The position numbers and the translations under genes were made by a program. A DNA stretch of 25,111 nt from Candidatus Scalinduaceae bacterium (GTDB lineage: Bacteria > Planctomycetota > Brocadiia > Brocadiales > Scalinduaceae). The DNA lies in NCBI GenBank assembly GCA_046759445.1, contig JBHICG010000049.1, positions 1 through 25,111 of the forward strand. Reading direction: 5' to 3'. The notes below the pieces were generated by a model, which did no database searches, was not told the origin of the DNA, and saw nothing but the letters and a program-made list of their open reading frames with translations. This document shows positions 1 to 23,948 of this stretch, piece after piece. Position 1 is the first letter of the stretch. Each line of letters opens with the position of its first letter.

Positions 1-376
1 AGTTGGTGATATAGACGGTAATGGGCAGGAGGATGTCATTATTGATTTTGGATCTGGTGTTGGTATCTGGACACTAATGAACAATAGTACATGGAGAAAG
101 CTGCACGCCATTTCGCCAGAGATCATGACAGTTGGTGATATAGACGGTAATGGGCAGGAGGATGTCATTATTGATTTTGGATCTCGTCATGGTGGTATAT
201 GGATTTGGTTAAACAACAGTAGATGGATTAAGTTGCACAAATCCTCACCCGAGATCATAACAACGGGTGATGTGGATGGTAATGGGAAGGAAGATGTAGT
301 CATTGATTTTGGATCTGGCGTTGGTATCTGGATACGAATGAATAATAGTACATGGAAGCCTATAAATAATCCATAA
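1..376 (+). CDS. 3' end of an FG-GAP/VCBS-like repeat protein (5' part outside the window)
   Basis: Frame is open from base 2 (VGDIDGNGQEDVIIDFGSGVGIWTLMNN...). Three ~43-44 aa repeats carry a GD[IV]DGNGxEDV motif. Bases 1-55 recur identically from base 130. Confidence 0.8.
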   Translation, partial: VGDIDGNGQEDVIIDFGSGVGIWTLMNNSTWRKLHAISPEIMTVGDIDGNGQEDVIIDFGSRHGGIWIWLNNSRWIKLHKSSPEIITTGDVDGNGKEDVVIDFGSGVGIWIRMNNSTWKPINNP

Positions 377-4044: not shown

Positions 4045-5184
4045 TTATATATGTTTATTAAAGAAATCCTTGATTGTATTAATAACGAAATCTTGTTCCT
4101 CTTTTGTTATTTCTGGAAAGATTGGAAGTGATAATGTTTCTTTGGCCGCTCTTTCTGCTTCAGGCATATCTCCTTCTGTATACCCCAGGTATGCAAGACA
4201 TTTTTGTAAATGTTGTGGAATTGGATAATGTACTGCGCAATCTATATTATTTGCCCTCAAGTGTTCCATAAGTTTGTGTCTCTCCTTTACCCTGATTACG
4301 TAAAGATGAAAGACGTGCCTGTTAAAGTCGATTACTTTTGGTGTTATTATATCCAGTTCCACCATTTTTTCTGTGTAATATGTTGCTTTTTGCCTTCTTT
4401 GTTCACCCCAGGCGTCTATATGACTGAGTTTTTTTATAAGGATAGCGGCTTGTATCGTGTCTAACCGACCATTAATACCCAGGATAGGGTAATAATTCTT
4501 AGGTTTTCCACCATGAATCCTCAACATGTAAATTAACTCTGCAAGTCCGTCATTGTTACATGTAACCATTCCTCCATCCCCATAGGCGCCAAGATTCTTG
4601 CTCGGGAAAAATGAAAAACATCCTAAATCACCCATTGAACCTGTTTTTCTATCTTTGTATTCGGCGCCAATGGCCTGTGCAGCATCTTCTATAACTTTGA
4701 TATCGTGCTTCTTTGCTATTTCCAATATTGGTTCCATATCTGCACACTGCCCATATAAATGAACGGGGATGATAGCTTTGGTATTTTTGCTTATACATTT
4801 TTCTATTAAATCTGGTCTTATGTTGTATGACTCAGGATCAATATCCACGAAAACGGGTTTTGCGCCGGCATTACATATAGCGCCAACTGTGGCAAAAAAA
4901 GTAAAGGGGGATGTGATTACTTCATCTCCATTGCCAATGCCCAATGATTTAAGAGCCAGAAATAATGCATCACTTCCCGAAGAGACACCAATTGCATGGT
5001 TTGTGTTACAGTATGAAGCGAAAAGTCTTTCAAATTCTTTAACTTGTGGCCCCAGGATGAAAGATTGACTTTCAATTACATCATGTATTGCAGAATCTAT
5101 CTCTTCCTTTATGTCGTAATATTGGCGACTTAAATCTAATAAAGGGACCTTTGTTTTTACGATTTTACCAACAGGATGGTTCAT
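4045..5184 (-). CDS. DegT/DnrJ/EryC1/StrS family PLP-dependent sugar aminotransferase
   Basis: Motifs SSGSDAL, VHLYGQ, IEDAAQA, FSFFPSKNLGAYGDGG, NGRLDTIQAA and LSLPIFP. Confidence 0.95.
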   Translation of the reverse strand: MNHPVGKIVKTKVPLLDLSRQYYDIKEEIDSAIHDVIESQSFILGPQVKEFERLFASYCNTNHAIGVSSGSDALFLALKSLGIGNGDEVITSPFTFFATVGAICNAGAKPVFVDIDPESYNIRPDLIEKCISKNTKAIIPVHLYGQCADMEPILEIAKKHDIKVIEDAAQAIGAEYKDRKTGSMGDLGCFSFFPSKNLGAYGDGGMVTCNNDGLAELIYMLRIHGGKPKNYYPILGINGRLDTIQAAILIKKLSHIDAWGEQRRQKATYYTEKMVELDIITPKVIDFNRHVFHLYVIRVKERHKLMEHLRANNIDCAVHYPIPQHLQKCLAYLGYTEGDMPEAERAAKETLSLPIFPEITKEEQDFVINTIKDFFNKHI

Positions 5185-5276
5185 CTTATATTTTTAAATT
5201 GCAACACTAAAAAAGGATTTCCCTCTTTAATATTTAGTAGAGGATATTTGCCAAATTGAAAATACAAATGTAAAAC

Positions 5277-5366
5277 TTATTTTTTCCTTCTTCTTGCTCG
5301 TCTTTTTAGGATGTACTTTTTCCTGTTGAGTCTGTGCTTCTTTTTTCCCTCAAATCCGTTTGCCAT
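5277..5366 (-). CDS. 29-aa Lys/Arg-rich small protein MANGFEGKKKHRLNRKKYILKRRARRRKK, possibly bS22/AURKAIP1-COX24-like
   Basis: Translated by hand (below the ORF-track cutoff). ATG at 5366 is preceded by purine-rich GAGAAAGGG; TAA at 5277-5279; composition is typical of tiny basic ribosomal proteins. Confidence 0.65.
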   Translation of the reverse strand: MANGFEGKKKHRLNRKKYILKRRARRRKK

Positions 5367-5832: not shown

Positions 5833-8445
5833 ATGGCACATCGTCCTCTTGTAGAAATTGTACTATCTTTTGCAATCGGCATATCTGCAGATTATATTCT
5901 CAATATTCCTTTTTTTCTTGTTTTCCCTACAATCTTTGTAACCTTGCTTGTGTATTTGTGTTTATTCGTATTTTACTCCCGACTGACCGAGTCTTTCGGG
6001 CGGGTTCCTTTTCTGTGGGTGGTCGGGCATGGAAGAGGTCCTGTGTTAACACTTCTTTTTTTAACGTTCCTGACAGGTGTTTCATATCACCATTTTAGAT
6101 TTTATTCTTATCCCACCGATAGCATATCGAATCTTATAAGTACCAAAAAAACTCCCGTTCGTTTGCATGGCATAGTCGTGTCACAACCTATTAGCAAATA
6201 TATGTCAAAGCCTCCGTTATCTTCGTTAAAACAACGCAAGGAGGTTGTTACGTTCTTACTGCGAACGGATGCAATAGAAAAAGGAGGAAATATTTCTGAA
6301 AATTTCGTGAACGGGGCACAGCGAGGAGATTGGAAAGACGTTTCAGGTGTAATTAAAGTAAATGTTTACCCAACAAAGGAAGAAGAAAATACGCTAAGCA
6401 GCGAAAAGGATCATCTTGCAAATAAACTAGAATATGGGGATAGGATAGAATTAGTGGGGAATATTTCAACACCTTCAGTGCCTCATAATCCAGGGCAGTT
6501 TAATTATAAAAAGTACCTTCAGAAACAAAATCCACGTACTGAGGCTATTCTCAGTGTTATAAGTGCTAAAAACGTAAAGCTAATATCAGAAAATCATGGA
6601 AATTATTTTTTTACATTTGTCTATAGCCTGAAGAAAAAATTAGATGAAGTTATTAGAAAATATGTGAAAAGAAGAAGTATTCCTCTTGTTAGTAGTATCT
6701 TACTTGGTGATCGCGAGAAGGTGCCAGAGAGACTTATGGATAATTTTGTAAAAACTGGGATTATTCATTTCCTGGCAATTAGCGGCTTGCACGTTGGCAT
6801 ACTGGTTGTTTCATTACATTTCTTATTAAGGCTATTTGGACTTAATATGAGATGCTTGGCAATAATTATCATATTGGTTACATTTTTGTATGCTGCCATT
6901 ACGGGAATGAAAACTCCAATTATGCGAGCTAGTATTATGGTCGCTATCTATTATGGTGCATTCATATTTGATAGGCGTTGGGATATTCTAAATAGCATCG
7001 CAGCGGCAGTATTTATAATACTTTTGATAAATCCATCAGACTTATTTAATGTGGGCTTTCAACTTTCAGTACTTGCAGTGCTTGGAATTATATACATTCC
7101 AGATAGAATTGAAAATTGTCTTTGGAAATCAACTCTCTTGATTGAAAAATTGCAGGCAAAGGAAGAAAGAAATGAGTTCTGGTTTTTGTTTAAGCGATAT
7201 TGCAGAAAGACATTTTGTGTTTCTCTGGCAGCCTGGATTGCCGTAATGCCACTTGTAGCATATTATTTTCATATCGTAACCCCTCTGGTAACATTGTTGA
7301 ATATAGTTGTCCTGCCATTAATATGGATTATACTGGTTGGTGGGTTTGTTGTATTGATCACGGGATTTTTGTTTCCAATATTGGCAACGCCGTTTGCCTG
7401 GCTGATTTCCTATTCTGCGATAACGTTGGAAAGCATAATTTCGTTTCTTTCAACAAATTTCGAGACTTTCTTCTATACATCGGGACTATCGTGGACGTGG
7501 ATAGCAGTCTATTACTTGATAGTCATACTTTTTATAGCAAGGGAGAGATTAAGGGTTAGAATGGTTCATGCTTTAATTGTAGTTTTGGCTGCTTCGAATA
7601 TATTTATCATTTCAGGATTATTTGGCCATAATCAAAGTTGTCTCAAATTTATGTGCTTTGATGTAAGGCATGGGACTTCTATCTTTATTCAATTTCCTAA
7701 CGGCAAAAACATGCTCTTTGATACAGGCACGTGGAGTAATTATGACGTAGGGAAATTTATTGTTGCTCCCTTTTTGAGGCAGGAGGGAATAAGAAAGATA
7801 GATACCATAGTTGTATCCCATGAAGATGATGATCATTGTAATGGGATACCGTCTCTTATTGAAAGGTTTAAGATTGACAATGTTTATGTCAACAAATTTT
7901 TCTTGCAATCTGGCAATAAAGAGAAGTTATTGAGATTAATTAGTGGGAAAAACATAAGCACAGGCCTGCTGGCTAAAGGTGTAGAAATTAATGGATACGA
8001 ACCGGCGAAAATCACGGTACTTAATCCACATGATAGAGACATATTAAGATATGAGGGTTTCCCTGTAAACGGCTTATCCGTTAACGATTCATCCAGCGTG
8101 CTATTGATTGAATATCTGGGTTACAAATTGTTATTGTGTGCGGATATAGGTGAATCTGGAATCGAGTTGATTTTGTCAGGCAAGGATGATCTGGTTGCAG
8201 ACATAATCCAGGTTCCACATCATGGAGGTTTTTGTGTAAAAACAGAAGATTTGATTAAGCGTGTTAAACCAAAACACGCCATAATAAGCGGAATAGAAAA
8301 AATTGTTTCGACATCTACGGTTGAAGCTTATGAGAAGTTTGGATCAAACTTATCTAAGACATACCAGGACGGGGCAATATCGTTTACTATAAATGAGGAT
8401 GGTATTCAAGTATCAAAATTTCTTAATAAACAAATTAGTAACTAA
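5833..8445 (+). CDS. comEC: DNA internalization competence protein ComEC/Rec2
   Basis: NPGQFNY, HFLAISGLHVG, GFQLS, and a C-terminal metallo-beta-lactamase domain (SHEDDDHCNG, QVPHHG). Confidence 0.95.
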   Translation: MAHRPLVEIVLSFAIGISADYILNIPFFLVFPTIFVTLLVYLCLFVFYSRLTESFGRVPFLWVVGHGRGPVLTLLFLTFLTGVSYHHFRFYSYPTDSISNLISTKKTPVRLHGIVVSQPISKYMSKPPLSSLKQRKEVVTFLLRTDAIEKGGNISENFVNGAQRGDWKDVSGVIKVNVYPTKEEENTLSSEKDHLANKLEYGDRIELVGNISTPSVPHNPGQFNYKKYLQKQNPRTEAILSVISAKNVKLISENHGNYFFTFVYSLKKKLDEVIRKYVKRRSIPLVSSILLGDREKVPERLMDNFVKTGIIHFLAISGLHVGILVVSLHFLLRLFGLNMRCLAIIIILVTFLYAAITGMKTPIMRASIMVAIYYGAFIFDRRWDILNSIAAAVFIILLINPSDLFNVGFQLSVLAVLGIIYIPDRIENCLWKSTLLIEKLQAKEERNEFWFLFKRYCRKTFCVSLAAWIAVMPLVAYYFHIVTPLVTLLNIVVLPLIWIILVGGFVVLITGFLFPILATPFAWLISYSAITLESIISFLSTNFETFFYTSGLSWTWIAVYYLIVILFIARERLRVRMVHALIVVLAASNIFIISGLFGHNQSCLKFMCFDVRHGTSIFIQFPNGKNMLFDTGTWSNYDVGKFIVAPFLRQEGIRKIDTIVVSHEDDDHCNGIPSLIERFKIDNVYVNKFFLQSGNKEKLLRLISGKNISTGLLAKGVEINGYEPAKITVLNPHDRDILRYEGFPVNGLSVNDSSSVLLIEYLGYKLLLCADIGESGIELILSGKDDLVADIIQVPHHGGFCVKTEDLIKRVKPKHAIISGIEKIVSTSTVEAYEKFGSNLSKTYQDGAISFTINEDGIQVSKFLNKQISN

Positions 8446-19118: not shown

Positions 19119-19193
19119 TTTTCCCTCCAGATAGAAAAAAAGATCTAAATTAACATTAAAAAATTTGTTATTGAATTTAAGCCAAAATTCTTA

Positions 19194-19237
19194 AATCCCC
19201 CTAACCCCCTTTAGAAAAGGGGGAAAGAGGGGGATTT
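19194..19237. repeat. CCCCCTAACCCCCTT...AAGGGGG REP-like hairpin (related copy at ~21200-21298)
   Basis: AAATCCCCCT...AGGGGGATTT inverted arms. Confidence 0.65.
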
Positions 19238-19353
19238 AAATTGTGTCAAGTGGCGAGATGTGATCCTGGGTACATTATTGGAATTTAGAATACCTTTTTC
19301 CGAAAGTAATAATAAGTTTTCTTTGGCCTTCATGACAAGATTTGGTTTTTAAT
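19230..19353. repeat. 124-bp conserved tail of cassette module, copy 1
   Basis: Direct repeat of 21291-21414; 8 mismatches by manual alignment. Confidence 0.9.
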
Positions 19354-19371
19354 GAATACGCAATTTTTTTA

Positions 19372-19444
19372 AGCTAACGCAAAATGATAACTGGTTTTTA
19401 AGGAGCACAGCGATTTAAAAAGCCGGTTTATCCGCTTGTTAGCT
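19372..19444 (-). mobile_element. Integron attC site (73 bp)
   Basis: Minus strand reads AGCTAAC-AAGCG-GATAAAC...GTTATC-ATTTTGC-GTTAGCT. The R''/R' boxes are perfectly complementary, L''/L' pair with one extra base, and the gene's TAA stop lies in R''. Confidence 0.85.
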
Positions 19445-19978
19445 TGTGCATGAGCTATTTTGTGTGCAACATACTGTTTTGAGGACAATTATCAAAACAG
19501 AGATTAACCCAATGATACACATACCTGCAGATGGAATTGCCAGGAAGGACAGCGCTTCTTTTGCTGCTCCTGTGCTACCAAGTCCTGGAGCCTTTAAAGC
19601 AGCAAACATCCAAAAAAGGGAATATCCCAAAGAACCCAATCCTAAGAATATTGCGGTGATGTTTTTAACAATCAATGGGGTTTGCATAAACATAAGAAGC
19701 AAAATGGCAGCTAATGAAATTGCCCCTAGTCCACTTGCGTGAAGGTGAGCACGTTTAAAGTAAACCCAGGATTTATCTGTAATCTTTTTCATTTTGACAG
19801 AATCACCTTTGTACACAGTATCAAAGACAGCCCGTGCTTCCTCCTTCAAATGGCCTTTGATCTTGCCTTCGATAGCTCCAAAAAGGCCTCCTAAGATAAA
19901 GCCAAACAACAATGTAAGAAGTGATAAGAGAAAGCCAATTCTTACAACTTTAATTTTTTCAATAATTTCTTTTTCCAT
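19439..19978 (-). CDS. Membrane protein of unknown function (~4 TM), gene cassette 1
   Basis: 179 aa with AAGGAG RBS and a RAHLHA motif; bounded by a GTTAGCT core (20004-19998) and attC. Confidence 0.8.
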   Translation of the reverse strand: MEKEIIEKIKVVRIGFLLSLLTLLFGFILGGLFGAIEGKIKGHLKEEARAVFDTVYKGDSVKMKKITDKSWVYFKRAHLHASGLGAISLAAILLLMFMQTPLIVKNITAIFLGLGSLGYSLFWMFAALKAPGLGSTGAAKEALSFLAIPSAGMCIIGLISVLIIVLKTVCCTQNSSCTS

Positions 19979-19997
19979 TTGTTTCTCCTTTTTTAAA

Positions 19998-20377
19998 AGC
20001 TAACAAGTTATTCTATAGTTTCTGTATAACACCACTATTGTAATGATATCCAGTAAGACCAGATTACTACTTTATGGAAAAACGGGATGAAAGTTCATGT
20101 TTCTACACTCGTGTAGACATAAATCTAACCCGCACAAGACAGAACCGACCAGAAGTTTAGAAAATACAAATGTCAAATTACAAATCCCAAACATATTCCA
20201 AATTACAATGTCTTAATGACCAAAACCATTTTGTTTGAAATTTTAGATTAAGGCAATTGTGATTTGTTTGTTATTTGGAGTTTGTTATTTGTCGTTTATC
20301 ACATATCCACATCACATATTGTGGTATAGTTTTTATGGTGTTTGAATTGAATGAAATGTGATGATAAATCTATATAT
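19998..20377 (-). repeat. Conserved ~380-bp module leader, copy 1, ending in an attI-like site (AATAACTT-GTTAGCT)
   Basis: Aligns with 22541-22922; similarity stops at the GTT core. Confidence 0.8.
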
Positions 20378-20402
20378 CCTCTTAATTATTCTGTCCACGA
20401 AA

Positions 20403-20672
20403 TTATTCAAACAAGTCGCTATGGCTACCTGTACGTTCCAAACGAAGAGTATTTGAATCGGTGTAATAAATGAGAATCCAATCTGGTTCAATGTGACAAT
20501 CTCGACAGGTTTTCCACTCGCCCACCAAAGGATGATCCCGGTGCCTGGGATGGAGGGTTTCATTGTTGGCAAGTTTATTTACCACGGATTGCAGCTTTTT
20601 GATGTCCTTGCTCCGTTTTCTCATCCTTTTAATATCTTTTAAGAATTGGTTAGACTGGGATAGCCTTTTCAT
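20403..20672 (-). CDS. yafQ: Type II TA toxin, YafQ family mRNA interferase
   Basis: DHPLVGEW, RDCHIEPDWILIY and RTGSHSDLF motifs; the ATG at 20672 overlaps the antitoxin stop (ATGA). Confidence 0.92.
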   Translation of the reverse strand: MKRLSQSNQFLKDIKRMRKRSKDIKKLQSVVNKLANNETLHPRHRDHPLVGEWKTCRDCHIEPDWILIYYTDSNTLRLERTGSHSDLFE

Positions 20673-20929
20673 TTCTCCCAACTATCAAACATTTCTTCAA
20701 GAGAATCAAAGGATTGAACATCTTCGCCCCGGCTACTTTTTTTCAAGGTTTCTTTTGTTAGCTCATTAGGAATAAGAATCGGGAATGGAATGCCACCACG
20801 AAGGCATATTTGATTATAAAAAAGGCGAATGGCTTCGGTAGGACTCATTCCCAATTTTTTCAGAACCCCTTCGGCTTTCTTTTTAGTCTTGGGCTCAATT
20901 CTGGCATGAACGGTTGCTGATTTTTCCAT
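20669..20929 (-). CDS. Type II TA antitoxin, RelB/DinJ family
   Basis: RHH-type VHARIEPKTKKKAEGVLKKLGMSPTEAIRLF and GIPF...PNELT; lies upstream of yafQ. Confidence 0.92.
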   Translation of the reverse strand: MEKSATVHARIEPKTKKKAEGVLKKLGMSPTEAIRLFYNQICLRGGIPFPILIPNELTKETLKKSSRGEDVQSFDSLEEMFDSWEK

Positions 20930-20935
20930 TTTATG

Positions 20936-20964
20936 ATTGTTTCACATATGCAACACATTTGCAA
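20936..20964 (-). promoter_or_regulatory. Putative TA promoter TTGCAA-N17-AACAAT with a quasi-palindromic operator
   Basis: The spacer contains ATGTGTTGCATAT; the ATG is only a few nt downstream, suggesting a near-leaderless transcript. Confidence 0.45.
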
Positions 20965-21290
20965 GTGATTTTTTTACGTCAAAAAAATAAATGCAGTCAA
21001 GAGGAAATTTAATCCCTTAGGATCTTTATAAGGAGAATGTTTCTTCAAAATATCAAAATGAAAGACCTGATCATAGAAGCAAAAACAGTCGCTGACCCTG
21101 TTTCGCTCAGACCCTGTTTCGCTCAGGGGTTTTTGAATTGTGTCAAGTGGCGAGATGTGACCCTAGGTTCTCCTAGGTTCCCTAATTCAAGACCCTAACT
21201 TCCACTAACCCTCTTTTTTCTATTTTTCTTATCCCCTCTTTACGCCTGCGTGCTGTCCTGTAGACGACCATAAGCAGGAAGGGGGGTTAG

Positions 21291-21414
21291 GGGGATTTGA
21301 ATTGTGTCAAGTGGCGAGATGTGATCCTGGGTTCATTATCAGAATTTAAAATACCTTCTTCTGAAAGTAATAATAAGTTTTCTTTGGCCTTCATGACAAG
21401 ATTTGTTTTTTAAT
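21291..21414. repeat. 124-bp conserved tail of cassette module, copy 2
   Basis: Direct repeat of 19230-19353. Confidence 0.9.
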
Positions 21415-21486
21415 AGGCTCATAAGCTGCCGCGAGTCTATAAGCTCTAAAATGGGCGCTGTTGTCCCTAATTGCCTCTGGTTAAGC
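21408..21486 (-). mobile_element. Degenerate attC-like site
   Basis: GCTTAAC at the gene end ... GCTTATGAGCCT-ATTAAAA; size and position fit, but L-box pairing is poor. Confidence 0.4.
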
Positions 21487-22514
21487 TCTTTTCATTAAAT
21501 TTTTTCTTGATATAGTCTGCAAATTCATAAGGCAACTGAAATACTGTTTGTCTGAATCTATAACTTGTATTGAAATAATCATTAATTTCCCAAGCATGAA
21601 TTGCCATCTCATGCCAGTTGCTTTGTTTTATATCTACTAAATATTCAAAGTCAATTGGAATATAATATTCCTCATCGGACTCTCCATTTACATCTTTTTT
21701 TAGAAAATCAGTTTTTGCTTGCCCTATTCCAATAACACCAGCACCAACATGATAAAGACAAACCGTATTACCTGCATGAATATTTTTTATGGAATATTTT
21801 TTCCCATAATAAGCGGCCCCTTTCTTTTCATGTATCATATCTTTGTAAGCAACTGGCATGTAGGTTTTGTTTGTATTTAATTACAAATAGACCACTTTCA
21901 GGTTGTTTAGGAGCATCCAGAATTGGACCGTACGGGTCAAAATCAATAAACAACTTATCTTCTATTTTGAAAACTCTGTAGATTTGTGCCGTTATATTTA
22001 TGCCTTTATTTTTCCAGTATGCAATAGCATCCCAAGTGTCATAATCAAGTCCATTGGTTACAATTACGAAATGTTGGTTGTTATTAAATCTATCCTTGTT
22101 AATAGGAGCATCTAAATCATAGAATTCTTCATGAGCTTGCTGAAGTTCTAGACTTTCTCCCTTGCCGTGTCTATACGATTGAAAAAACCAATTTAATTTA
22201 TCATAGTTATAACGTCCAAATTTCTGACCGTAACGAAGTGCTTGAAGTAAATTCTCACTTCTTCCTTCCCACCTTTTCAATTCAAAAATATAAAGGGCTC
22301 CTTCTTGATCAATTGCAATAATATCTGGTTCTTCTTGTCGTCGACGCTCTTGCATGATTACCATTAGTTGATCCGTACGTACTAACTCTTCAATTCTTTT
22401 TGAAATAATGTTTTCTAAGTCCTTTTCTTCAAGATTAGATGAGGATAGAGAGATTTCTTTGACTTTCTCTACATCTGATTCATTAGTACATGGATTTATC
22501 CATTGAAAAAGCAT
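21467..22514 (-). pseudogene. Frameshifted PD-(D/E)xK (NucS-like) endonuclease gene, gene cassette 2
   Basis: EKDLE...PDIIAIDQEGALYIFELKR...QALRY. ORFs 21828-22514 and 21467-21859 join into 348 aa (...FVINTNKTYMPV...) if one A is removed at ~21876-21878; GGAGG RBS. Confidence 0.75.
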
Positions 22515-22540
22515 TCGGCCTCCTTTATAGGTTCTTTATA

Positions 22541-22935
22541 GCATAGCAAGTTATTATAGATTTTCCGAATAACACCACTATTGTAATAATATTCGTAAAG
22601 ACCAGATTACTACTTTATGGAGAAACGGTAAGAAAGTTCATGTTTCTACACTCATGTAAACATAAACCTAACCTGCACAAAACAGAACCGACCAGAAGTT
22701 TAGAAATTACAAATGTCAAATTACAAATCCCAAACAAATTCCAAATTACAATGTCTTAATGACCAAAACCATTTTGTTTGAAATTTTAGATTAAGGCAAT
22801 TGTGATTTGTTTGTTATTTGGAGTTTGTTATTTGTCGTTTATCACATATCCACATTACAGTGGTGTAGTTTTTATGCTGTTTGAATTGAATGAGGCTGAA
22901 ATGTAGTAATAAATCTATATATTATTGAAGTCAAG
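22541..22935 (-). repeat. Conserved module leader, copy 2, with TTGACT-N17-TATTAC promoter and mutated attI-like core (AATAACTT-GCTATGC)
   Basis: Aligns with 19998-20377; -35 at 22934-22929 and -10 at 22911-22906. Confidence 0.8.
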
Positions 22936-22988
22936 GGAAAATGGGGTTTGGTGAGATGTAGTTTGGGGCAGGATGTTTCCCCCCTGAA

Positions 22989-23666
22989 TTATTTATTAAT
23001 TAATCTAAACAGTTTATATGCCAGTTCAGGGACGAGGCTTTTTAGTATTTCATACTGCTCTAAGGCAGAGTCTTTATCGTTTGATAAATTATAAATAAGA
23101 CCGAGATTATAATAAGACATTGCATAGTCAGGGTTTCTCTTTATTGCAACCTTTAACGCCTCAATCGCCTCTTTATACTTGCCTAGTTCACCATAGGCAT
23201 TACCGAGATTATTATAAGCAACTGTATAATCAGGGTTAATAAATATTGCACGCTTGTATACCTCAATCGCCTCTTTATACATGCCTGATTTGTCATAGAC
23301 AAAACCAATATTATAATGAGCTGTTGCAGAATTAGGCTTAATCCTTATTACGTGCTTTAACGGCTCAATTGCCTCTTTATACATGTGTAAATTTAAATAG
23401 ACATAACCGAGAGTTTTATGAGCCTTTGCATCATCAGGGTCGTTCCTTATTGCCTGCTTGAATGCCTCAATCGCCTCTTTATACATGCCTGATTTGAGAT
23501 AGGCAACGCCGAGATTAAAATGAGCCTGTGCATCATCAGGATTCTTCCTTACTGCCTGTTTGCATGCCTCTATCGTCTCTGCGTTAGAGTCCTTTGCCAG
23601 AGACATACCGCCTGTCAACGCTAGATACAGGGTTGCCGTGATTATTAAAAGATATGATTTCTTCAT
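22989..23666 (-). CDS. Exported TPR-repeat protein
   Basis: Signal peptide and ~5 TPRs; DNA repeat CCTCAATCGCCTCTTTATAC with 102-bp period (23159, 23261, ~23363, 23465). Confidence 0.9.
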   Translation of the reverse strand: MKKSYLLIITATLYLALTGGMSLAKDSNAETIEACKQAVRKNPDDAQAHFNLGVAYLKSGMYKEAIEAFKQAIRNDPDDAKAHKTLGYVYLNLHMYKEAIEPLKHVIRIKPNSATAHYNIGFVYDKSGMYKEAIEVYKRAIFINPDYTVAYNNLGNAYGELGKYKEAIEALKVAIKRNPDYAMSYYNLGLIYNLSNDKDSALEQYEILKSLVPELAYKLFRLINK

Positions 23667-23800
23667 GGTAGGATAGGATTATAAATTAATGGGGGAATTA
23701 GGCAAGGGCTTTTTGAGGTTATATCTTACCACTTGACATAACCCTTTTAATGTTTATTTTAAAAGAAATATATTCTACTGTGAGAATGGACGTATCTGGC

Positions 23801-23948
23801 AAGAAAGTTCATGTTTCTACACTCATGTAGACATAAACCTGAATCTAAGACAACTTATCCACATCACAAGTTGTGGTATAGTTTTTGTGCTGTTTGAATT
23901 GAATGAAAATGAGATTTGATAATAAATCTATATATTATTGAAGTCAAG
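23801..23948 (-). repeat. Partial third copy of the module leader with TTGACT-N17-TATTAT promoter
   Basis: Shares GAAAGTTCATGTTTCTACACTCATGTAGACATAAACCT and the distal ~90 bp, but lacks the central heptamer-rich insert and the attI-like end. Confidence 0.8.

Follow-up and report, generated by a model that had tools for sequence, protein, structure and literature searches.

Contig JBHICG010000049.1 of a Candidatus Scalinduaceae bacterium (GCA_046759445.1), analysed over its full length of 25,111 nucleotides (nt) and referred to below as the window, carries two minus-strand units, each consisting of a common upstream block (the leader) and a common downstream block (the tail) around a different gene. 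These units are probably integron platforms without an integrase of their own, in which the attachment site attI has been multiplied and is loaded with cassettes by an integrase encoded elsewhere in the genome. The leader ends in a homologue of the attI that adjoins an integron-integrase gene (intI) of the same genome, unit 1 holds a cassette with definable boundaries and a canonical attC site, the cassette content of the orthologous pad has turned over in a congener, and many orphan attI sites are present per genome. One integrase encoded elsewhere in the genome may serve many such scattered pads.

The window is contig C49 of this genome (G000), a draft in 145 contigs; its other contigs are likewise given as C-numbers, those of relatives as genome and contig (G001:C26), and the crossover point of a recombination site is marked by a caret (G^TT). 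The initial annotation had described two minus-strand units with shared flanks and unrelated genes inside, and this arrangement is borne out by a repeat search and BLAST. The leader copies (20377-20001 and 22922-22544) are 90.3% identical over 383 alignment columns (BLAST) and correspond to the direct repeat D2 (19989-20288 versus 22532-22831, 300 nt, 91%), and the tail copies (19353-19228 and 21414-21289, repeat D4) are 93.7% identical over 126 nt. The cargo genes of unit 1 and unit 2 share zero similarity with each other.

The leader end and the unit 1 cassette

The features of unit 1 that bear on recombination are the following.

20004-20099, minus strand: unit 1 attI module, long form, ending ...CAGAAACTATAGAATAACTTG, with the crossover G^TT between 20004 and 20003
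19378-20003, minus strand: unit 1 integron cassette, 626 nt, from the TT of the attI crossover to the G of the attC R' box
19439-19978, minus strand: open reading frame (ORF) of the unit 1 cassette, 179 amino acids (aa), predicted membrane protein, no Pfam family
19372-19444, minus strand: unit 1 attC, R'' AGCTAAC and R' GTTAGCT, 7/7 complementary

The two leaders stay alike up to ...AATAACTTG, past which unit 1 reads TTAGC and unit 2 reads CTATG; the G on the crossover side lies at 20004 and 22547, respectively. All 11 of the own-genome copies with this leader end diverge right after AAC(T/C)TG-TT, in agreement with the earlier proposal that similarity stops at an integron-type G^TT crossover. 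An information-content profile of 26 copies anchored on the G, one of which (C54) is probably a chance match to the regular expression, gives about 2 bits from -17 to the G, 1.5-1.6 bits at the TT and at most 0.6 bits from +3 onwards, where a weak consensus of R-box type (GTTaggc) can be read. The unit 1 leader end is 96% identical over 27 nt to the intI-adjacent attI on contig C104, the matching stretch being 27-33 bases, and the initial annotation's comparison with an intI-linked attI thereby holds for the C104 site and for five inspected relatives. Its core, TAAC-TT-GTTA, is a pair of inverted R-type boxes, and the attC models described below read it as R'' and R' with nothing between them (window 19998-20013; C48:4250-4265). 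On these grounds the leader end is assigned as an attI with a G^TT crossover at the head of an array. A reading of the leader as a VCR-like (Vibrio cholerae repeat) attC was rejected, as there is no R''/L'' partner upstream of the leader end and the intI-linked copies consist of the short site alone.

Just upstream of the core, all long-form copies carry a hairpin or palindrome, CTG(G/T)ATATCATTAC-AATA-GTGGTGTTAT(A/C)CAG (20040-20075 in the window), in which one pair apparently covaries, being G..C in some copies and T..A in others. This hairpin could be an accessory integrase-binding region, the site of a regulator or an RNA structure.

The 3 kb downstream of the unit 1 junction contain a single exact reverse complement of the first 8 nt past it (GTTAGCTT), and this complement overlaps the stop codon at the end of the 179-aa ORF. 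The attC found there is ordered as R'', a 5-nt spacer, L'', loop, L', spacer and R', and its bottom (plus) strand folds with a bulged G and a bulged T, five positions apart, on the '' side, which we take to be the canonical extrahelical-base pattern. Three home-made covariance models with rough calibration were built on attC sites of relatives and of other loci in this genome, the window and its G014 orthologue being excluded, with 4 (R1), 12 (R2) and 26 (R3) seeds; three heuristic attC scanners, which were too strict or noisy, served solely for seed collection. R1 was too narrow, recovering its seeds and one further site. All three models place 19372-19444 (minus strand) first in the window with exact ends, at 13.4 bits (E 0.24) for R1, 16.5 bits (E 0.018) for R2 and 17.7 bits (E 0.0098) for R3. 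The second-best match of the attC models, 2477-2520 on the minus strand (CGCTAAC...GTTAGCG, 13.2 bits, E 0.17), lies within a 947-aa ORF and is probably due to chance.

Eight genomes of another genus encode homologues of the 179-aa protein (82-89% aa identity); the two same-genus genomes have no such homologue. In G014:C244 the copy runs from G^TTAGCTTTTAAAAA to an attC (R2: 30.6 bits, E 2.9e-6), past which G^TTAGCT follows, so that the same boundaries stand in a different context. Architecture, fold, covariance models and this second copy thus agree with the initial annotation that the unit 1 gene ends in an attC, and unit 1 is, judging by these boundaries, a genuine IntI-type gene cassette.

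Other pads, integrases and cassette turnover

Contig C26 of the same-genus genome G001 carries rtcB and relB-yafQ (91.7%), then a leader (81-87%), cargo of about 2.1 kb and a tail (90%). Its alignment with the window breaks off at the attI G^TT (20000) and is taken up again at 19379, the base before the R' box of unit 1; the cargo between these points consists of unrelated ORFs of 279 and 318 aa, neither with a firm Pfam family, each followed by an attC (39.2 and 25 bits). With flanks conserved at 82-92% identity, the cassette content has turned over at a pad that has no intI in either genome, and such turnover would fit loading by an integrase encoded elsewhere. Further pairs of leader and tail enclose 7.4 kb in G002:C71, including HNH, DUF6932, HTH/M78-like and DUF4186 proteins, and 2.8 kb in G005:C16, including a PRTase-CE protein. 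No empty pad, with the leader joined straight to the tail, was seen in the loci examined.

The attI pattern RAAAYTNTANAMKAACYTGTT, with one mismatch allowed, was counted in 28 genomes of the family and gave 97 matches in 22 of them; the reversed control gave 7. Twelve of the matches are in this genome, one of them beside intI. Across the family, 9 of the 97 sites lie within 700 bp of an intI match and one more is convergent with intI (G017); the rest have no listed intI nearby, with the reservation that short contigs can hide a neighbouring intI. No intI debris was found on C1, C14, C48 or C49. A test for the R'' complement of the sequence past the crossover was positive for four of 11 own-genome copies (unit 1, C48, C14 and C104), the complement occurring a single time downstream, at the stop of the first ORF or 30 nt past it. 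With relatives included, it was positive for 8 of 28 copies defined by the regular expression (about 7 of which are chance matches, while many loci hold only 1-1.5 kb downstream), compared with a mean of 0.83 and a maximum of 4 for permuted 8-mers in 500 trials.

An attC stands behind the first ORF in the pads C48, C129, C1b and C104. The C1b pad, a 4-kb stretch (C1, 122.3-118.3 kb), holds two recognised attC sites (121435-121492 and 119713-119839), past which follow a further ORF, an AAC/GTT-flanked hairpin that the models do not score, and the next leader; the C75 pad ends at the contig edge. The sister pads G001:C26 and C1 fall under the definition of CALIN (clusters of attC sites lacking an integrase). 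The idea of a single-cassette system, put forward in the initial annotation, does not hold for these sister pads, as G001:C26 has two cassettes and C1 apparently three or more attC-ended units.

Two proteins of the genome exceed the cut-off of the integron-integrase model TIGR02249 (265 bits), on C8 (415 bits) and C104 (377.6 bits), and tyrosine-recombinase matches below it occur on C6, C82, C37 and C89. Neither of the two lies on C49, which confirms that the window lacks intI, and the arrangement of a complete integron, with intI adjacent to the array, is absent from this contig. On C104, a promoter (TTGACA-17-TATAAA) with its -35 box inside a palindrome runs divergently from the intI gene. 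The attI beside it reads ...ACAGAAACTATAGAATAACTTG^TT, in longer form ...CCGTTACTACACAGAAACTATAGAATAACTTG^TTGTGAG, and is followed by three attC-ended cassettes (attC at 4211-4338, 5246-5326 and 5925-6050), in the first of which the R'' box, CTCACAAC, complements GTTGTGAG exactly.

Other intI genes of the C104 clade (364-381 bits) are preceded by the same motif, at a distance of about 460 bp and in divergent orientation, in G018:C12, G009:C22, G004:C1, G011:C13 and, as a fragment, G007:C1. In all five of these inspected loci (L076, L077, L078, L087 and L091), the sequence past the GTT is different. By coordinates alone, the motif is likewise adjacent to intI in G015:C57, G005:C19 and G005:C58. 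Neighbourhoods of intI genes of the other clade lack the motif and the long-form attI module, with the exception of G017:C78, where a long-form leader faces the 3' end of intI in convergent orientation.

At C104:3760-3800, and in L076-L078 and L087, the -35 region is palindromic (TTGACATTTGTCAA), with TTGACA on both strands, which suggests an operator or else promoters of intI and of the cassettes that face each other. Genes for Y1 transposases (IS200-like or associated with repetitive extragenic palindromic (REP) sequences) were observed at the far end of cassette arrays (C104:6100-6757 and C46:24400-24700), both with the conserved upstream motif GGGTCACACCTTGA...

We propose that an integrase of the C104 clade, for which C104 has an intact gene, would act in trans, inserting circular cassettes at the G^TT of orphan attI sites, most of which are fused to a portable promoter. 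Each incoming cassette would push older ones downstream, and the promoter would drive the newest; recombination of this kind may continue at the present day. One such platform was duplicated to give the two units of the window, unit 1 then carrying the cassette of the 179-aa membrane protein.

Mosaic leader, tail and unit 2

The unit 1 leader has 23 matches in the genome, which sort into three separable pieces: a promoter module, a hairpin repeat and the attI module. The first two are represented in the window as follows.

Unit 1 leader positions 1-80 and 252-290, minus strand: promoter module, sigma-70, family consensus TTGACT-17-TATTAT, two small hairpins
20303-20377, minus strand: unit 1 promoter remnant, with the -10 box and the first hairpin kept and the -35 box deleted
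23807-23948, minus strand: third leader copy, shortened to the promoter module alone (TTGACT-17-TATTAT and twin hairpins), without attI module
20126-20305 in unit 1 and 22669-22848 in unit 2 (leader positions 72-251), minus strand: hairpin repeat, 180 nt, CA/GU-rich, inserted inside the leader

The promoter module, with its -35 and -10 boxes, occurs in 9 copies in this genome, each before a different sequence, and a highly similar promoter in front of unrelated genes is what characterises putative mobile promoters. It is found without the attI module at 23807-23948 in the window, on C37, C2 and C65, and many times in relatives. The third piece comprises the last ~100 nt of the leader, ending ...CAGAAACT(A/T)TA(G/T)AATAACTTG, and occurs without the promoter on C14. 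In its distribution the leader is confined to the family as far as searched, being present in 23 of 24 other family genomes and in none of 16 genomes from four neighbouring families. No fixed recombination junction was found at its 5' edge, where some copies have a GTT 33-62 nt upstream and others have none, and the hairpin before the C1a leader was not scored as attC; these results lend no support to a promoter cassette, nor do they refute one. The constant leader of the initial annotation therefore does contain a promoter and an attI end, and is not one block but a mosaic of three separable repeats.

Among leaders, the 180-nt hairpin repeat is present only in the two window copies; it also occurs on its own at C20:39403-39581 and in the relatives' loci L091 and L080. 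This repeat is inserted in the leader and is later than its other parts. It folds into one long imperfect hairpin with a CA-rich and a GU-rich arm, and in view of these arms it pairs well solely on the minus strand; it could be an element resembling miniature inverted-repeat transposable elements or a small RNA.

The tail is divided into two parts.

19269-19377, minus strand: tail part A, 5' untranslated region (UTR) and first ~22 codons of a gene termed gene X, ATG at 19333-19331, beginning at the TT of the R' box
19228-19268, minus strand: tail part B, 41-nt motif ..CACATCTCGCCACTTGACA.., with three copies in the window (also 21289-21329 and 21125-21170)

From its start, TTAG(C/G)TTAAAAAA..., part A is 90% identical to G001:C26:3239-3149, from the R' box on. 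The reading frame of gene X runs on into a 314-aa protein with BNR/Sortilin-type repeats in G001:C122 and G005:C16, and in G001:C122 the intact gene stands directly behind an attC of 46.3 bits. The tail is thus best read as the truncated start of an older cassette gene for a BNR propeller. The initial annotation treated it as a constant part; it is the 5' remnant of a cassette gene that is intact in G001:C122, and not a purpose-built terminator. The point of truncation varies among genomes and is identical in both window units, and this, together with the common hairpin insert, identifies units 1 and 2 as a duplication of one pad. A direct fusion of the first ~80 nt of the tail to an attI module, with another cassette behind it, is present in G002:C64 (L118 3650-3775, minus strand) and indicates that the gene X start and the attI module recombine in more than one arrangement. 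The 41-nt motif was also observed in inverted orientation behind promoter-only leaders (23717-23741; also G014:C81, C65).

Unit 2 is composed of the following features.

22544-22939, minus strand: unit 2 leader, with promoter module 22860-22939 (TTGACT-17-TATTAC), hairpin insert 22669-22848 and attI module 22547-22635
21467-22514, minus strand: unit 2 cargo, two overlapping ORFs of 228 aa (21828-22514) and 130 aa (21467-21859)
21289-21469, minus strand: unit 2 tail, with a 55-nt block (21415-21469), then the truncated gene X start and the 41-nt motif (21289-21414)

The 55-nt block, TAGGGACA(AC)AGCGCC...GAGCCT, is also found before the gene X start in G005:C16 (L119 ~2135-2200) and at C26:37104; the G005 copy reaches into the end of a CMD-family ORF. 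A homologue of the 228-aa protein is present in one of 27 other family genomes (G005:C291, 31% identity), and the comparison of the unit 2 ORFs with this sole homologue, made for a possible frameshift between the two, spans the N-terminal nuclease-like part only. The label NucS-like, which the initial annotation gave to the unit 2 product, could not be confirmed, Pfam giving a sub-threshold NERD match alone (E 0.016).

The minus-strand gene order of the region is rtcB, the promoter-only leader, a gene for a tetratricopeptide repeat (TPR) protein, unit 2, relB-yafQ, unit 1 and an ahpC/TSA-family gene. Two further features accompany the units.

20403-20929, minus strand: relB-yafQ toxin-antitoxin pair between units 1 and 2 (Pfam RelB E 6e-13, YafQ_toxin E 3e-34)
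19185-19235, no strand: GC-rich palindrome, a REP-like or terminator-like repeat with dozens of copies on both strands in relatives

An Rfam scan of the window at E<=1 gave nothing relevant, with U6-like and REN-SRE-like matches both under their gathering scores. Internal repeats were also observed in the TPR gene (23082-23591, four tandem 102-nt repeats, 67-73% identical) and at the window start (5-356), where 129-132-nt repeats lie within an ORF.

Competing explanations and relation to known systems

A number of observations weigh against platforms loaded in trans. The unit 2 junction reads AACTTG-CTATGC and has the core GCT instead of GTT; R1, R2 and R3 recognise no attC in 21400-21500, between the 130-aa ORF and the tail; and the right boundary is formed by the unexplained 55-nt block. 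Unit 2 thus shows neither a 3' attC nor a 5' G^TT, its cargo is near-private within the family, and its status as a loaded cassette, claimed by the initial annotation, is not supported; with its mutated core, this platform is probably inert now. The unit 1 attC scores are modest (13-18 bits, E 0.24-0.01) and come from home-made models of rough calibration. Behind C14 (an R'' only, then an unrelated repeat), C128, C46 and C1a no attC is recognised. The promoters of both units are impaired: in the position of a cassette promoter upstream of attI, sister copies carry TTGACT-17-TATTAT, whereas unit 1 lacks the -35 box, as a deletion relative to G001 (its alignment to other copies begins past the box, and G001:C26 retains TTGACTT at the orthologous spot), and unit 2 has TATTAC as -10 box. 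Expression of unit 1 may depend on read-through from relB-yafQ. Transcript contigs from the RNA runs X12 and X20 are 90-95% alike and stem from relatives alone, not from this organism; they cover the leader and the unit 1 gene, with zero coverage of the unit 2 gene.

The identity of the partner enzyme is affected as well. A search at E<=1e-40 detected no integrase of the C104 clade in the same-genus genomes G001 and G002 (97% and 93% complete), which have 6 and 8 attI-like sites; the other clade alone was found there, and its integrase neighbourhoods lack the attI motif. The cognate enzyme is therefore not present in every assembly, which weakens the assignment of the C104 clade as the partner in all cases. 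On C54 (22447-23170), two attI-like sites with a mutated AACGTGTT core lie beside short integrase fragments, one of them of 32 aa with 72% identity to the C104 IntI; this locus looks like a decayed and duplicated integron head, and some orphans would thus be decayed integrons.

Several of these points suit an alternative in which the pads are relics of once complete or split-off integrons, loaded beside a former intI and inactive now. The two mutated-core sites beside intI fragments on C54 speak for it, as do unit 2 with its mutated core and missing attC, and the orphan sites of G001 and G002, whose matching-clade integrase was not found. The short-form orphans on C128, C46 and C6 keep the promoter of the intI-linked platform with no intI sequence, and integrase loss and rearrangement are listed, next to secondary-site insertion, as possible origins of CALINs in the accessible portion of Cury et al. 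(2016, PMC4889954). The long-form copies, on the other hand, carry a portable promoter upstream and not the intI-side promoter, C1, C14, C48 and C49 hold no intI debris, about 87 of the 97 sites are not intI-adjacent, and cassettes were exchanged at an orthologous pad without intI in either congener, so that we regard relics as an unlikely general explanation. It is less probable still that the leader is merely a portable promoter or 5' UTR element with a coincidental likeness to attI. The promoter module does occur without attI module (23807-23948, C37, C2, C65 and many times in relatives), and the G-T wobbles of the conserved hairpin that immediately precedes the core would suit an RNA leader; yet in 9 places the distance and orientation of the end motif relative to intI are fixed, attC cassettes begin exactly at the G^TT with an R'' that complements the cassette start, and on C14 the attI module has no promoter at all.

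That the duplication or its junctions are assembly artefacts of a metagenome-assembled genome was named as a danger in the initial annotation, and we consider it next to impossible. The draft is in 145 contigs, and Logan contigs break within the repeats, no single one spanning a whole unit. The copies differ, however, at 6-10% of positions, and Logan contigs from two DNA runs show 0 differences over 19315-20043, 20283-21329 and 21376-22713, thereby covering every unique junction (tail to cassette to attI, leader to relB-yafQ to tail, and tail to cargo to leader); both runs belong to one study, which possibly includes the source sample. Copy divergence and matched junctions together exclude an artefact, and the duplication is real.

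Platforms loaded in trans accordingly remain our preferred account of the units. The trans-loaded promoter-attI landing pad of the initial annotation gains from the attI homology, the unit 1 cassette and the turnover in the congener, and has to be modified for the mosaic leader, the multi-cassette pads, the doubtful cassette status of unit 2 and the impaired promoters. As in a chromosomal integron, the attI is a simple site of inverted R-type boxes (TAAC-TT-GTTA) with a G^TT crossover and a putative promoter upstream, cassettes of ORF and attC stand at the G^TT with older ones downstream, and the site is homologous to the C104 attI; the window differs from one in lacking intI on its contig, in the portable promoter-leader upstream and in the multiple copies of the site (12 matches). 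By definition the window is a SALIN, that is, a single attC lacking an integrase (Loot et al., 10.1101/2022.09.11.507474, in the part of the text at hand), and not a CALIN, because it has one detectable attC alone, no intI nearby and fewer than the two attC sites of a CALIN. It shares with both classes attC cassettes far from any intI, and differs from them in that its array is headed by an identifiable attI and promoter. In the accessible portion of Cury et al. (2016, PMC4889954), about half of the CALINs are in genomes that encode IntI elsewhere, and CALINs are defined by attC; for most integrons, according to the paper, no attI is known and a search for it is impossible.

Insertion at attG sites also places cassettes away from the integron, where they can be expressed near a host promoter, and such sites are very unlike att sites in sequence and structure, according to the same part of Loot et al. 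(10.1101/2022.09.11.507474). The receptor here is instead a conserved attI homologue of 27-33 nt, reused at many loci and 96% identical over 27 nt to the C104 attI. With putative mobile promoters, as far as the portion of PMC3575422 at hand describes them, the 5' module of the leader shares its position before unrelated genes; a subset of the copies here differs in being fused to a site-specific recombination site. Such a fusion of promoter and recombination site would offer a concrete route by which unrelated genes could arrive behind a promoter. A literature search, covering few subscription journals and no supplements, returned no description of orphan or multi-copy attI sites, nor of Scalindua integrons.

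Integron biology assumes one attI per integrase, adjoining the integrase. In this family the attI is recognisable by its sequence, so that orphan copies become countable for the first time; they are seen fused to a portable promoter, and one of them changes its cassette content between congeners. CALINs are common, and their origin is unsettled partly because attI sites beyond the clinical classes are unknown and cannot be searched, as the accessible portion of PMC4889954 has it. More tentatively, and with rather less than even confidence, we suggest a polycentric integron in the Scalindua family, in which the attI of one integrase clade would stand in about ten promoter-equipped pads per genome, one integrase would act on them in trans, several first cassettes would be expressed, and the promoter-attI unit may itself be moved by the integrase as a promoter cassette (attI x attC). 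If action in trans is true, a genome would run several expressed cassette slots, which would revise the picture of expression and silent reservoir, and a polycentric integron would, if true, provide a concrete origin for many integrase-less cassette clusters.

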